From: a virus
Taxonomy: Duplodnaviria > Heunggongvirae > Uroviricota > Caudoviricetes
Reading direction: 5' to 3' (one strand)
Length of the DNA stretch: 37,530 bases
IMG/VR virus record: IMGVR_UViG_2663763220_000005
Shown piece after piece: positions 21,623 through 28,608 of the stretch. A model generated the notes under the pieces. The model saw only the letters and a program-made list of their open reading frames with translations. It ran no database searches and was not told where the DNA came from. The translations under genes were made by a program, and so were the position numbers. Each line of letters starts with the position of its first letter. Position 1 is the stretch's first letter.

Positions 21623-21728
21623 NNNNNNNNNNNNNNNNNNNNNNNNNNNNNNNNNNNNNNNNNNNNNNNNNNNNNNNNNNNNNNNNNNNNNNNNNNNNNN
21701 NNNNNNNNNNNNNNNNNNNNNNNNNNNN
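21623..21728. other. Assembly/scaffold gap (106 N)
   Basis: Run of N characters. Confidence 1.
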
Positions 21729-22548: not shown

Positions 22549-22923
22549 TTATTCCGATCGCTGGAGTTGCTCATGATGATACAGAGCGAGAATCAGGTCA
22601 TAAGACCCTTGCCTGTCTTTGTAACCAGTTTTATCAACCAATTCAGCTTTACTGATTCCGGGTAAATCAAGAATCAGATTCGCAACTTCAATTGCCCTTT
22701 GGTACAACTTACCGCCTTTTTTCTCCCCATGCAGTGGTTTTACATTCTTCAGGTAACCGCTATCCGCCAGGGCGAGAAATGTTGCCCTTGGGCATATCTT
22801 CTTTCTTGACGATTCGCTTTCTGTAACCTCTGCGATAGCTGCATCCCATGCATCACGAGGAGTCATTGAGCTATCAGCCACCAAATGATAAGCGATTAAA
22901 GCAACGTGAGCGTATTGAGACAT
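22549..22923 (-). CDS. Hypothetical cargo protein (about 124 aa) downstream of Rz
   Basis: ORF of moderate GC with a start at the internal Met (MSQYAHVALIAYHLV...); I recognise no family. Confidence 0.45.
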   Translation of the reverse strand: MSQYAHVALIAYHLVADSSMTPRDAWDAAIAEVTESESSRKKICPRATFLALADSGYLKNVKPLHGEKKGGKLYQRAIEVANLILDLPGISKAELVDKTGYKDRQGSYDLILALYHHEQLQRSE

Positions 22924-22961
22924 AATGCATCCATATACAAAAATCTTATGATAAGACTTTT

Positions 22962-23417
22962 CTAATATGAACACTGTGATCTCACATATTCTTGCAGGCC
23001 ATTCAATTGGTTAGTTATGGTTTCGATGCGCTCTCTGAGAACGAAATAATCCCGTTGAGCGGTGTCAGTAAGTCTGGGGCTGGAAGCATCATCCACGCCG
23101 GAGGCGGCGGTGGTTTTATGCTTGTCCGGACAGACTGCTTTGACGTGCAGCCACTTACGACCAGCAGAAACATCAGCACGAAGACTTTCGATAGTCGCGT
23201 TAGCATCAGCAAGCTCCTTTGTGTATCTGGCGTCGAGTTCAGCTACATCATGTTGACGCTTCTGCATGTCAGCGATGATGGATGTGGCTTTGTCGCGCTG
23301 TTCTTTGTAGGTCATGGCGTTATCACGGTAATGATTAACAGCCCATGACAGGCAGACGATGATGCTGATAACCAGAGCGGAGATAATCGCGGTTACTCTA
23401 CTCATTGTTGCCCCCAC
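22962..23417 (-). CDS. Rz i-spanin
   Basis: 151 aa with an N-terminal TM segment and coiled-coil periplasmic domain; the Rz1 ORF is embedded in an alternative frame. Confidence 0.8.
23015..23212 (-). CDS. Rz1 o-spanin (outer-membrane lipoprotein embedded in Rz)
   Basis: 65 aa with signal peptide, lipobox VVSGC and a PPPPP stretch. Confidence 0.75.
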
Positions 23418-23899
23418 AAACAGACTTCACGCTCAATCTCACGGCGAGTCATCAGCCCTTTCCATTGCTTACCGCCAGCGTATGTCCAGCGCCGTAGCTG
23501 ATCACATGCGCCTTTGATATCGCCCTGGTTTATTTTGCGAAGAAGTGTCGATGTTCTGAAATTTCCAGCACCAACGTTGTAAACGAACGAGTAAAGAGCG
23601 CCGCGCGTTGTTTCCGGTATATCGACTTTGATGTACGGGTTAATTTGTCTGGCGACAGTGGCAAGGTCTTTATTCAGGAGGGCTTTGCATTCTGCTTCGG
23701 TATACGTTTTACCGAGCATAATGTCTTTTCCGGTATGCCCGTAACATACAGTCCATACACCAACGATATCTTTATATGGTATGTAGCTGACGCCTTCCAG
23801 ACCATCGTTACCACTTGGGCCAGTGATTAACACAGATGCTATAGCAATAGCCCCGCCACCAATAGCCGCAGCAACGGCTTTTCGTAATGATGGAGGCAT
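23402..23899 (-). CDS. SAR endolysin (lysozyme, phage 21 R-like)
   Basis: 165 aa; N-terminal signal-anchor-release segment ([18 protein letters not shown]) followed by a lysozyme domain. Confidence 0.85.
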
Positions 23900-24114
23900 T
23901 ATTCACCTCTCGCAGCCTTGCGCTTATCTTCTTTAATCTTGAAATAAAGGTTTGTCAGGTACGTCAGCAGGCCAAATACCAGGCTACCCAGCACACCTAT
24001 TGCTGCCCACTGTGAGGGCGTGACTTTATCGAGCAGCTGTAAAAACCAGTAGCCAGCACTGCCTGCGGAGGTGCCGTAGGCAATGCCCGTTGTTAACTTA
24101 TCCATAGATTTCAT
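23899..24114 (-). CDS. Pinholin (phage 21 S-like class II holin) with dual-start motif
   Basis: 71 aa, [26 protein letters not shown]... with two TM segments; Met1-Lys-Ser-Met4 dual start. Confidence 0.85.
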
Positions 24115-24302
24115 AGCCTCACCTCCGCAAATAACGGATGGTGTACACGGTTCGGAACGAAGAGGAAAGGTATAGAAGTTACATTAGCGTAAGGCTTGAA
24201 CATCTATTCAAAAAGAAAAACGCCAGCGATTATTCTGGCGTAGCTGAAAGCATCATACAATTATCAAATACGAAAATTACAAAATCATTAAAACGCATCA
24301 CG

Positions 24303-25043
24303 TTACATCATGTCTTTTTCTAAAAAAAATCTTGATGAATATTGATGGGGAGGAACACCAAAATATCTTCTGAAAACACTCACAAAATATGACGTGTTTT
24401 CATAACCGCATATCTCAGCAACTTTTCCAACAGAATATAAATTGTAGCTTAATAACCTTTCCGCCATCACCATTCGCTCTTCAAGAATTAACTTACTAAA
24501 TGATAAGCCTTCGTGCTTTAATTTTCTTTTTAACAGACTTTCACTCAGATACAGTCTTGAAGATATATCACAAAGTCTCCATGCTGCAGATATATCCGTG
24601 TGAATAATAGCCTTAACTTTACTTCCTAAACTATTAAGACATCCAAATAAAAAACTTTGCACTATTTTCTCTGAAGATAAGATAGCAAGACATGCAAGTG
24701 ATATTTGATTTCTAACAAAATCCACAGTTCTGCCATCACAATTCAAGCATGCAATCAAGTTCTTTAACAATGAAAAATCTTCACATTCCACCATCAAGTA
24801 TGCCGGATAAAACCTTCTTACAGAAAAAGGTGAGAGTGTGTTGCTTTTAAAGAAATCATTAACTGTTTTCTCTTCAACATCTACGATCATTACATGATCT
24901 ATATTTGATGAAAAAAAATCTTTTAAATTGTAATCAATGAGAACAGCACTTCCTTTTTTAAACAAAATATCTTCTTTACCAATTCGGACATCAAACGAGT
25001 TCAACACCAAAATGATAGAACATATGTATGGCATATTATCCAC
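24303..25043 (-). CDS. AraC-family transcriptional regulator (AppY/GadX-like)
   Basis: 246 aa, AT-rich; C-terminal HTH_AraC signature (KVAEICGYENTSYFVSVFRRYFGVPPHQY). Confidence 0.8.
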   Translation of the reverse strand: MDNMPYICSIILVLNSFDVRIGKEDILFKKGSAVLIDYNLKDFFSSNIDHVMIVDVEEKTVNDFFKSNTLSPFSVRRFYPAYLMVECEDFSLLKNLIACLNCDGRTVDFVRNQISLACLAILSSEKIVQSFLFGCLNSLGSKVKAIIHTDISAAWRLCDISSRLYLSESLLKRKLKHEGLSFSKLILEERMVMAERLLSYNLYSVGKVAEICGYENTSYFVSVFRRYFGVPPHQYSSRFFLEKDMM

Positions 25044-25385
25044 CTGATATCATTGGGGTTACACCAGGTAAGTATAGGTGGAAAATCAATATTCGCAAGT
25101 TCAACAATAAGGAAAATTTCATTGCATCACAAGTATAAAATTATGTATTTAACTCACAAAGACAAATTATTAAACCAATCTGTTATATTATATATAGCTG
25201 CGTGGAATCATAATATTATATATTTTGACTGGCATGTTTACCAACTTTAAGTTGCATCTCAATTGTTTCTTCAGCGTAAACAGAGTTTTTATACAAACTG
25301 ACACTCTGGGTATCATAGTGTAGTTTTTACGATTGTAAATATCCTGCATGCAGGAACTCATCCTTTTGGATGATATCGCATACAA

Positions 25386-26345
25386 TTAATTTACCATCAG
25401 TCTTAGAGCCAGTTCGTCCGGATAGGGATCGAAGTAATTCTGTGTAAGCAAGTAATCATTAGGATACTCACCCAGATAATGCTTCAGCAGAGTCAACGGC
25501 GCAAGAAGAGGTAATGTGCCAGAACGATAGTTAAGTATAACCTCGCTCAACTCTTTACGCTGGCGTGTACTTAAGTAGTTACTAAAATACCCCTGTATAT
25601 GCATCAGCACATTCGTGTGATTTTTACGTGATGCAGGTTTTCTGAGAATCGCCATCAGCTTATCACGATACACCTCAAAGTATGATTCAAGGTCCGCCCA
25701 CTCGTGTATTGCAGCCACAAATGGTCCCATATCTTTATAGCCTGCCTGACTATGCGCCAACAACTGAAGCTTATAACGACTATGAAAAGCTAATAACTCT
25801 CTTCTTGATAATTTCTCCTTGTAAAGGTGATTGAGCTCATGCAAAGCAAAAACTCTTTCAACAAAATTCTCACGAAGCACTGGATCATGTAATCGCCCAT
25901 CCTCTTCAACCGGTAGCCAGGAAAACTTTTCCATCAAAGTACTCGTAAATAGTCCCACTCCATCTTTACGACCTCGATTACCATTTTCATCATAGACACG
26001 CACGCGCTCCATGCCACAGCTGGGAGATTTAGCACAAACCACAAACCCCGATACATCCTTTAATTTGTCCATATAAGAACGACTAAACTCTGTCATTCTC
26101 TCTGTCACATCCTCATTCTGGTCGTGGCTGAAACACATCCGTATATTTCCTTGCGTCGAGCGCACAAGACGTAGAGCAGGACGCGGAACTGGCAGCCCTA
26201 TAGCCATTTCCGGACATACTGGTCTGAATGTTACCCATTCCACTAATTTGTCCATTAAAAAGTCAGCTCTTTTGTGACCACCATCAAAACGAACAGCAGA
26301 ACCGGCCAAACAACCGCTGATTCCAATCACAGGTTTTTTTATCAT
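25386..26345 (-). CDS. DUF523 (TudS-like putative Fe-S thiouracil desulfidase) - DUF1722 (YbgA-like) fusion protein
   Basis: 319 aa; N-terminal GISGCLAGSAVRFDGGHK cysteine motif of DUF523, C-terminal half resembling YbgA. Confidence 0.65.
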   Translation of the reverse strand: MIKKPVIGISGCLAGSAVRFDGGHKRADFLMDKLVEWVTFRPVCPEMAIGLPVPRPALRLVRSTQGNIRMCFSHDQNEDVTERMTEFSRSYMDKLKDVSGFVVCAKSPSCGMERVRVYDENGNRGRKDGVGLFTSTLMEKFSWLPVEEDGRLHDPVLRENFVERVFALHELNHLYKEKLSRRELLAFHSRYKLQLLAHSQAGYKDMGPFVAAIHEWADLESYFEVYRDKLMAILRKPASRKNHTNVLMHIQGYFSNYLSTRQRKELSEVILNYRSGTLPLLAPLTLLKHYLGEYPNDYLLTQNYFDPYPDELALRLMVN

Positions 26346-26537
26346 ATTCTCCCCCTTGACTAATTCATTAACACATAAACTGTGTAGTGCACGGAATAAA
26401 TTGCCTTTCTGGCGTCATCACTGACAATTTTTCTGTTATGGACTATTCCTAATATAGTATGAAAGTTCTTTAAGTGATCGGTCGTAATCATCTATCTTTC
26501 ATACTTACTCTCAACTATCAAAAGTACAGGATTTATT

Positions 26538-27062
26538 ATGAAGTTATGGCCTGTGTTGACTGGCATTGCACTCTCTTTCACTCTTATAGCATGTAAGGCC
26601 CCGACACCACCTAAAGGTGTGCAGCCGATTACAAATTTTGACGCCAACCGCTACCTCGGAAAATGGTATGAAATAGCTCGCCTCGAGAACCGGTTCGAAC
26701 GTGATCTGGAACAGGTCAGCGCTACTTATGGAAAACGGAACGACGGAGGGATTCGTGTACTTAACCGTGGATACGATCCAACGAAAAATAAATGGAGCGA
26801 GAGCGAAGGTAAAGCATACTTTACTGGAGATACTAAAACTGCAGCATTGAAGGTTTCGTTTTTTGGCCCCTTCTATGGTGGCTATAATGTAATCAAACTG
26901 GATGATGAGTATAAGTATGCTCTTGTCAGTGGTCCGAACAGAGAATACCTATGGATTCTGGCAAGGACCCCAACTATTCCAGATAAAGTAAAAGCAGACT
27001 ATGTGCGAACCGCTCAAAAGTTGGGATTCAATGTCAATGAATTATTATGGGTTAAACAATAA
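26538..27062 (+). CDS. blc: Bacterial lipocalin Blc (outer-membrane lipoprotein)
   Basis: 174 aa; signal peptide with lipobox LIAC and the lipocalin motifs NFDANRYLGKWYEIARLENRFE and YLWILARTP. Confidence 0.85.
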   Translation: MKLWPVLTGIALSFTLIACKAPTPPKGVQPITNFDANRYLGKWYEIARLENRFERDLEQVSATYGKRNDGGIRVLNRGYDPTKNKWSESEGKAYFTGDTKTAALKVSFFGPFYGGYNVIKLDDEYKYALVSGPNREYLWILARTPTIPDKVKADYVRTAQKLGFNVNELLWVKQ

Positions 27063-27090
27063 AATCCCTACCCGAAATAATACTTATTAG

Positions 27091-27117
27091 AAAAAAACCA
27101 GCCTTTGGGGAGGCTGG
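27091..27117 (-). terminator. Rho-independent terminator downstream of Q (tR'-like)
   Basis: Minus-strand CCAGCC-N8-GGCTGG hairpin followed by TTTTTTT, about 100 nt downstream of the Q stop. Confidence 0.6.
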
Positions 27118-27217
27118 CTAAATCAGGAAACAAGCTGTTATATGGTAATAACTACGTTGCGATTCCAACATTTAAAATGTTAGACTAATGACAATCAGAC
27201 AGCAACTTTTCCTTTAA

Positions 27218-27595
27218 TTATTTCGAACAATCAGCATCCATCTCCAATCGGAGATCCAACACCATCAGCATACCCTCCACTACGCCCTCAGCTTTCTGGA
27301 GCATCCTGCCAACCCAACAATCAGATCGCCCATGCTTACGTGCAAGCGCCATAAAAGTCATGCCGCCGACATAATAGTCCACCAATAAATCATGCAAATC
27401 GCTGTTGTTCTTTTTCAGACGGGCCATGCACCCGCAAATGATCATCGCGTCATCGTCACAACATTGTGGGCGAGATTTTACTTTTGAAGGAATTAATCCC
27501 TTAAAACCGGCGGCAATGGACGACCAGGTCACATCTTCATGATTATTAGCCGCCCACGCTCCCCAACGCTCAAGAACCATCTGAATATCACGCAT
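27218..27595 (-). CDS. Q: Late-gene antiterminator Q (QuuD-like)
   Basis: [34 protein letters not shown]... matches the DLP12 QuuD-type Q family as I recall it; GGAG RBS upstream of the ATG at 27595. Confidence 0.85.
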
Positions 27596-27612
27596 CAACT
27601 TTCTCCACAAAA

Positions 27613-28608
27613 TCAGGCCAGCACGCCAGTTGCCAGCGCACGATCGATAAAACGAAATATCAACTCCAGCTGGGAGCCATACTTCTCTTCAAATGCCGCG
27701 GTATCCGCATGCAGCTCGTCGTGATGCTTTCTGCACAAAGGCAATACAAAGAGGTCATGCGCTTTTGTACCCATTCCGCCCTGACCGTGGCCTATCAGGT
27801 GGTGGGGATCATCAGCAGGCTTTCCACAACATGCACACGGCTGTGTCTTAACCCAGCGCGTGTACTTTTCGTTAACCCAGCGGCGACGTTTTGGGCGTAA
27901 CATAAAAGACTCCGGCGACTCCGGATCCACTTTCAGCGCCAGCACCTTTTTCACTTTATCCTGGATGATGCTGGTGGCAGGAACCGAAGGAACAAGGTCA
28001 CTTTCCCGGGTGACAGACGGCACAACAGGCTTCGGTAATCTCAGTGCCTTACGGGCTGCACTTTCCGGCAAGGCTCCCGCCAGGTCATTACGAACCAGCC
28101 ACCAGCACAGTTCCGGCATTGTCACAACGTGACTGTCATCAAAACCGAGATCCCGACGCACAACAGACAACACCCAGCGGGCACAGTTATCCGTTGCCAT
28201 TGATTCCAGCCGTTCCGTGAACTGATCGCGCAGCTGGTTATCGCAGTGCCAGCACAGACGGATTGCACCCGGCGCGTGTCGCATTGTGGTCATGTTCTCG
28301 CTGTGCCAGTCGGAATGAGGCCACTGGCAGCCTTTTTCACGAAGTAACCAGCTTTCAAGACATTCCACGCCACCAGCACGACGGATCACTGCCTCATTGC
28401 GGAACACGGCCCGAACGGCAGGATCATCCGCCAGCGGTTGTGATGCCGCCGGAACAGCACCACTGGCGAAAGATGAATAACGTTCCGGCTCAGGCTCCAG
28501 CAGGACACGCCCCTGCATAAACAGGGGCATCAGCTCTGAACCTGGTCTGAACAATACGATCCCCATACGCGGGGCAATTTCAGGGGTCAGTAGTGCTCTC
28601 ACGGTCAC
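27613..28608 (-). CDS. DUF968-family protein (YdfU-like) with C-terminal Cys/His zinc-binding motif
   Basis: 331 aa; C-terminal [16 protein letters not shown]...[12 protein letters not shown] motif. Confidence 0.65.

Follow-up and report, generated by a model that had tools for sequence, protein, structure and literature searches.

We analysed a 37,530-nt stretch of DNA from a tailed virus of the class Caudoviricetes (IMG/VR record IMGVR_UViG_2663763220_000005; hereafter the window), in which the prophage direction is the minus strand, with regard to the interval between the antiterminator gene Q and the holin gene S. Three genes lie there, namely blc (an outer-membrane lipocalin), rudS (a predicted transfer RNA (tRNA) 4-thiouridine desulfidase) and a gene for an AraC-family regulator. 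Our findings suggest that they form a composite cargo module (moron) for lysogenic conversion, placed in the Q-to-S slot of a lambdoid late region of the DLP12 type, and we put the probability of this reading at about 0.72. The island is real but common, and parts of it have already been described.

The gap between the Q stop codon (27218) and the holin start codon (24114) is exactly 24115–27217 and holds three open reading frames, with blc on the plus strand and the DUF523-DUF1722 gene and the AraC-family gene on the minus strand. An earlier interpretation of the letters alone (the sequence-only reading) had located three genes between Q and the holin, and the frames, domains and flanks are all as it had placed them. 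The genes of the interval and its two flanks are as follows.

27218–27595/27610, minus strand: antiterminator Q, QuuD-type (PF06530, E = 2.5e-51); flank, not cargo
26538–27062, plus strand: blc, outer-membrane lipocalin lipoprotein (Pfam Lipocalin_2, PF08212, E = 1.1e-43); convergent with Q
25386–26345, minus strand: rudS, putative TudS(DUF523)-DUF1722 tRNA 4-thiouridine desulfidase (PF04463, E = 3e-40; PF08349, E = 2e-40)
24303–25034, minus strand: AraC/XylS-family regulator, YdeO/PatE-like group (HTH_18, E = 1e-14); 243 amino acids (aa), 31.8% GC
23899–24114, minus strand: holin S, EssD/P21 pinholin type (PF04971, E = 2e-35); flank, first lysis gene

The Q-to-S slot and its cargo

Phage records were searched with a 3.9-kb query spanning the island (23800–27700). 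Twelve of them contain at least 80% of the query, with an identity of 98% for IdasGreatGrand and about 90% for 1H12 and the Lambda_ev series, and many other records match it at Q and S alone (about 90%) and carry a porin gene, nmpC or ompD, between the two. In mEp332 and Kati, Q and S are 87–94% identical to the window at the nucleotide level and nmpC occupies the Q–S slot. Homology to these two phages ends at 24125 (11 nt ahead of the start of S) and, within the last Q codons, at 27236; the comparison of Q-to-S intervals among related phages, by which the sequence-only reading had proposed to define the limits of the insertion, thereby sets them at these two positions. As with blc, nmpC is convergent with Q, and the corresponding arrangement in the DLP12 prophage of K-12 is quuD, nmpC::IS5, essD. 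The flanking proteins resemble those of the same prophage, Q being 88% identical (aa) to K-12 QuuD, with a distant match to the Q21 structures 6P18/6JNX (E = 1.8e-8), and holin S being 99% identical to K-12 EssD and followed by lysozyme and then Rz.

The base composition of the island also sets it apart. Its GC content is 0.381 against 0.500 for the whole window, and phage genes further out lie at 0.52–0.61. The AT-richness relative to the flanks claimed by the sequence-only reading is thus present, being strong for the AraC gene (0.318) and slight for rudS (0.433) and blc (0.436), which are merely 4–5 points under their immediate neighbours Q (0.478) and S (0.486). Since unrelated DNA replaces the island in homologous phages and its composition is atypical, we regard the island as a moron in the Q–S slot. 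The substitution of nmpC in sibling phages and the existence of non-phage chromosomal homologues of blc and rudS bear out the cargo character that the sequence-only reading had proposed, and they speak against the case which that reading had set against its own proposal, that of a conserved ancestral part of the phage family with phage-cycle functions: siblings carry nmpC, and no phage-cycle family was matched. All three proteins fall in PHROG families of unknown function; no match to a phage-cycle function or to any known defence family was found for them, and the PADLOC defence models gave zero matches. Known RNA families and tRNA genes were also sought in the interval 24115–27217, with none above threshold.

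The island occurs on at least three phage backbones. The first, that of the window, has DUF968 and KilA-N genes upstream of Q, an HK97-type head and a sheath/baseplate (contractile-type) tail; the second is lambda-like, with NinX, RusA and YlcG; and the third is Qin-like, with hokD and rem. Among 5426 complete E. coli genomes, 1156 match the island; of these, 992 cover at least 80% of it and 603 have an identity of at least 99%. The 90%-identity clusters of the window proteins have 1131 to 2556 members, and the number of contigs on which each protein was seen runs from hundreds to at least 1000. Some variants have no AraC gene or no blc; we considered them as a sign of modular assembly and rejected this, as they are disruptions by the insertion sequences (IS) IS1, IS3 or IS5, or truncations. 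The BL21(DE3) assembly that we examined has an intact blc and only a fragment of rudS. The island was also seen at 99% nucleotide identity on two contigs of a 'Candidatus Nanosynbacter' metagenome-assembled genome (L058 1–3209 and L063 1–2113), where this piece of E. coli prophage is almost certainly bin contamination.

The porin-carrying phages are the closest parallel to the arrangement described here. The nmpC/ompD cargo of DLP12 and mEp332-type phages shares with the island the QuuD-type Q, the EssD-type S, the breakpoints, and a first cargo gene that is convergent with Q and encodes an outer-membrane product. It differs in consisting of one porin gene rather than lipocalin, RudS and AraC genes, and in a post-Q sequence unlike that of the island except for one 26-nt block considered below.

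The island genes and their composite origin

The DUF523-DUF1722 gene is assigned to RudS by its domain architecture (PF04463 at residues 7–149, 137.9 bits; PF08349 at residues 192–309, 138.2 bits), by its residues and by 93% identity over 319 aa to RudS_vir, the gp66 protein of phage 1H12 (H3V29_gp66). The sequence-only reading had the two domains right and missed that they make up an enzyme of known activity, as it also missed that the island is widespread and has in part been published. The [4Fe-4S] ligands are present as Cys12, Cys44 and Cys110 (RudS_vir numbering, Table 1 in PMC11417400). To judge by motif spacing, Glu46, Arg55, Ser107 and Ser109 are the equivalents of the catalytic Glu51, Arg60, Ser111 and Ser113 of RudS_KT. 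None of these seven residues varies among 61 aligned sequences. RudS proteins are [4Fe-4S] desulfidases that strip 4-thiouridine (s4U) from tRNA (Jamontas et al., NAR 2024, PMC11417400); according to the same study, chromosomal RudS genes are located in light- or UV-responsive operons, overexpression of RudS_KT lessens the growth delay induced by near-UV light (UVA), and RudS_vir expressed in E. coli lowers the s4U content of tRNA. The window protein and RudS_vir have in common the TudS-DUF1722 architecture, the three cysteine ligands and their place in this island of three genes between Q and S; they differ in that RudS_vir belongs to another allele of the island, with an overall nucleotide identity of about 88%, on another phage backbone. 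According to that study, E. coli has no TudS/RudS homologue (PMC11417400). Because 1156 of the 5426 complete E. coli genomes match the rudS-carrying island, the statement is true of K-12 only and not of many natural isolates.

The assignment of blc is equally specific, the protein being placed in the NCBIfam Blc subfamily (NF007786) with 314.5 bits against a cutoff of 267. It is 59% identical to K-12 Blc and about 80% identical to the Enterobacter and Leclercia copies that adjoin rudS. The lipobox is L16-I17-A18-C19 (LIAC), and the N-terminus reads MKLWPVLTGIALSFTLIAC-K, with Cys19 followed by Lys at position +2. Because this is no inner-membrane retention residue, the lipoprotein is predicted by the Lol +2 rule to be sorted to the outer membrane. 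Mathieu et al. (Nat Commun 2020, PMC6969025) describe blc as a moron carried by more than 50% of 19 Lambda-like coliphages from the gut. Gene and phages are shared with the present case, as 1H12 and the Lambda_ev series belong to that collection; the passages of that paper considered here differ in naming blc alone.

The third gene starts at the conserved ATG at 25034 rather than at the GTG at 25043, as judged from the alignment of island variants. The C-terminal double helix-turn-helix is recognized by HTH_18 (residues 161–237, 54.9 bits) and HTH_AraC (44.1 bits), and the protein matches phrog_1450 (3.5e-107). An AraC protein encoded in a prophage remnant at 0.33 Mb of the O157:H7 chromosome shares 54% identity with it over 235 aa. 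Comparable proteins are PatE, PsrA and PsrB of O157:H7 and YdeO of K-12, among which PatE and PsrB activate the acid-resistance genes gadE and hdeAB (PMC10877973). Like these, the window protein is a full-length AraC/XylS protein of about 245 aa whose closest curated family is YdeO, and, as in PatE/PsrA/PsrB, its gene is AT-rich and prophage-borne; the difference is that it lies in the Q–S slot and not near tail or effector loci. Phages with the nmpC-type slot carry a 52%-identical AraC gene at another position (mEp332 44454–45167, ev099 25201–25914 and PhiR70_1 46989–47702), and YdeO/PatE-like regulators for this reason recur as lambdoid cargo, and not at one site only.

For the origin of the island we compared 60 Enterobacteriaceae chromosomal loci encoding a full-length RudS homologue (66–77% aa identity). 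In 38 of the 60, a blc homologue (68–81% aa identity) lies upstream of and divergent from rudS, in most cases about 1.4 kb away. At the Enterobacter hormaechei locus examined (L016 3660–4898), genes for a MerR/MlrA-like regulator and a transthyretin/HIUase-like protein stand between the divergent blc and rudS. In Citrobacter sedlakii, just as in the phage, blc and rudS are immediate neighbours. An AraC gene was sought in these chromosomal rudS loci and none has one. Because blc–rudS loci exist on chromosomes without the AraC gene, the pair and the regulator gene are separate pieces: the island is a composite of an enterobacterial chromosomal blc–rudS pair and a separate, much more AT-rich AraC piece. 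The phage pair was captured without the MerR-type regulator and the transthyretin-like gene that usually lie between its members. The three-gene island of the sequence-only reading accordingly stands as regards its presence in the slot and falls as regards a single unit. A recent donor for blc–rudS was considered and rejected, as the best chromosomal matches have only 67–75% nucleotide identity and, in the two loci checked, a far higher GC content at third codon positions (GC3).

Between island alleles, the ratio of nonsynonymous to synonymous substitution rates (dN/dS) is 0.07–0.23 for blc, 0.10–0.21 for rudS and 0.13–0.27 for the AraC gene, so that it spans 0.07–0.27 over the three with dS reaching 0.35. 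All three genes are under purifying selection, and because these low ratios go with such a dS, the genes have been maintained and their association with the slot is old. The association with the Q/S frame is also stable across several backbones.

Transcription signals and a model of expression

The candidate signals of the region are listed below in the direction of late transcription; the free energies are minimum free energies (MFE) of folding.

27205–27177, minus strand: candidate PR', weak, read from the sequence (−35 TTGCTG, 17-nt spacer, −10 TAACAT)
27143–27118, minus strand: conserved 26-nt block ATATAACAG-N3-GTT-N5-A-N-TTAG, just upstream of the tR'-like terminator
27119–27096, minus strand: tR'-like intrinsic terminator with a 9-bp stem and seven T (MFE −14.9 kcal/mol, z −4.2)
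26346–26537, no strand assigned: divergent blc/rudS control region, nearly invariant among island variants
26514–26487, minus strand: rudS promoter-like site from the consensus scan, inside the control region
25339–25312, minus strand: predicted sigma-70-like promoter of the AraC gene, TTTACA-16-TATGAT (10/12 consensus matches)
24241–24220, minus strand: second intrinsic terminator, after the AraC gene and ahead of S (MFE −11.3 kcal/mol), then TTTTTCTTTTT

The tR'-like terminator lies about 100 nt 3' of the Q stop codon and is kept in phage 1H12. It stands upstream of both minus-strand genes, just where the sequence-only reading had put it, and because its plus strand has no T-run it is not an obvious terminator for blc. 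The stem of the second terminator is invariant in all variants despite a diverged spacer, the sole change being one loop base in a single variant (L074). The promoter-like sequence TTTACA-16-TATGAT, which directly follows rudS and precedes the AraC gene, is likewise invariant across island variants within a variable spacer. Between the second terminator and S, no promoter was predicted by the consensus scan, and a start of late transcription there is disfavoured.

The region just downstream of Q was aligned between the blc and nmpC types of cargo. The 26-nt block at 27143–27118 is the only stretch that they share, and it may belong to a pause or Q-loading site. A related motif, ATATAACAG(A/C)TTG(G/T)TT, occurs at 27143–27128 and at 25188–25173 (upstream of the AraC gene), with a partial copy at 26439. 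We considered this repeat as a shared regulatory or Q-loading site and dropped the idea except for the copy next to Q: the ATAACAG core is not enriched (8 occurrences in the window, a number reached by 8 of 100 shuffles), and the copy at 25188–25173 is deleted in 1H12-type variants. Nothing resembling the Q21 binding-site repeat TGAGCA was seen, and our literature search on QuuD/EssD antitermination found no open paper.

The order Q, tR', antisense blc, rudS, AraC gene, second terminator and S would fit Q-dependent read-through. In the lysogen, each island gene would be driven by its own sigma-70-type promoter, and minus-strand transcription would end at the terminator at 24241–24220, shielding the holin gene. 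After induction, Q-modified RNA polymerase would start just 3' of Q and pass tR' (27119–27096), cross blc in the antisense direction, transcribe rudS and the AraC gene, which would be the first genes of the late transcript in sense orientation, and then pass the second terminator into S-R-Rz. RudS would convert tRNA s4U to uridine and so blunt the near-UV growth delay, and the AraC protein would probably feed into the regulation of host acid resistance of the gadE/hdeAB type, by analogy with PatE and PsrB.

Precedents exist for both features of this layout. In Stx phages such as 933W, the stx cargo lies 3' of PR'/tR', where read-through under Q allows its expression along with the late genes, and bor of phage lambda is a moron on the opposite strand within the late region. 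The island cargo is likewise placed between Q and S; it differs from the stx morons in having no toxin or tRNA genes and in that one cargo gene is antisense to the late transcript.

Elsewhere in the window, a DUF6979 gene (22549–22974, minus strand) lies directly 3' of Rz and may be further cargo ending the lysis cassette. A run of 106 N at 21623–21728 marks an assembly gap between the gene for the terminase small subunit and an HNH endonuclease gene. At 680–3482 on the plus strand, a gtrA-like gene (PF04138), a gtrB-like family-2 glycosyltransferase gene (PF00535) and a 506-aa open reading frame without a Pfam match form a block with a GC content of 0.31–0.43 that adjoins the tail-fibre genes; it looks like a second cargo module of the prophage, an O-antigen glucosylation (serotype-conversion) cassette.

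Weighing the readings and their meaning

Several observations weigh against the cargo module as we have described it. With regard to origin, GC3 of the phage blc and rudS genes is 0.39–0.40 against 0.68–0.82 in the two chromosomal loci checked, and no donor for the pair was found among the chromosomal matches. As for function, RudS_vir had the weakest tRNA desulfidation among the variants assayed (PMC11417400). The best NCBIfam match of the AraC protein, YdeO (NF007407), aligns over the full length at 127.3 bits, and because this is far under the equivalog cutoff of 348 we take the protein to be YdeO-like and not YdeO. Further, the O157:H7 protein at 0.33 Mb is probably PatE (z0321, OI-8) to judge by its genome position only, and the cluster names were uninformative. 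Finally, scanning, inspection and comparison with the nmpC module and the Q21 layout did not confidently find PR', a pause element or a Q-binding site, and the candidate TTGCTG-17-TAACAT was missed by the consensus scan and is not kept in the module of the nmpC type.

The benefit of the cargo could lie in the lytic cycle rather than in the lysogen. RudS, and perhaps the AraC protein, would then be chiefly a lytic-cycle auxiliary: s4U would be stripped from host tRNA after UV/SOS induction, leaving late translation unslowed by tRNA photo-crosslinking and the stringent response. The sense orientation of rudS, directly 3' of tR' and upstream of S, agrees with this, as do the position of chromosomal RudS genes in light- or UV-responsive operons, the reduced UVA growth delay upon RudS_KT overexpression (PMC11417400) and the loss from the phage copy of the MerR-type regulator of the chromosomal loci. 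However, the conserved promoter-like region of its own suggests that rudS is expressed in the lysogen too, siblings with the same Q and S carry nmpC and no rudS, the tRNA activity of RudS_vir is modest (PMC11417400), and nothing in this system connects prophage induction with UVA at doses that crosslink tRNA. We therefore regard a chiefly lytic role as unlikely. A bolder version, likewise improbable, would make RudS a Q-controlled epitranscriptomic late gene product that erases s4U8 as the UV-damaged lysogen induces while the YdeO/PatE-like regulator simultaneously reprogrammes stress regulons; if this were true, SOS/Q control would have replaced the light-responsive MerR control that rudS has on chromosomes.

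A third possibility concerns Blc, which might act as a phage-protective surface factor, through superinfection exclusion or receptor masking in the manner of the lipoproteins Cor and Llp or of the porin nmpC in this slot, so that the island would be a phage-competition module. As the gene of an outer-membrane lipoprotein lying opposite to late transcription, blc is probably expressed in the lysogen, and the alternative cargo, nmpC/ompD, likewise encodes an outer-membrane protein in the same orientation. The protein nevertheless passes the Blc cutoff and is about 80% identical to ordinary Enterobacter chromosomal copies, with no phage involved, and no PADLOC defence model was matched, which makes this role very unlikely. 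That the genes are decaying hitch-hikers without current function is hardly credible: some genomes, BL21(DE3) included, hold IS-disrupted or truncated copies, but dN/dS is low for all three genes (0.07–0.27, with dS up to 0.35), the RudS catalytic residues are intact, the control regions and terminators are conserved, and about 1000 genomes have an intact or nearly intact island.

The composite cargo module is thus the reading we favour, and it is largely made up of things already known: the phages are deposited, blc is a published moron (PMC6969025), a rudS orthologue has been assayed (PMC11417400) and the regulator belongs to a studied prophage family. About one-fifth of complete E. coli genomes carry a phage-borne rudS, which matters for work on tRNA s4U, the UVA response and 4-thiouridine labelling in natural isolates. 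The AraC protein adds one more YdeO/PatE-like member to the pool of prophage regulators able to rewire acid resistance. The layout, in which one antisense and two sense genes are followed by a second terminator ahead of the holin gene, is a natural example of cargo insulation in a late operon and could be used as a test bed for Q-dependent co-expression.

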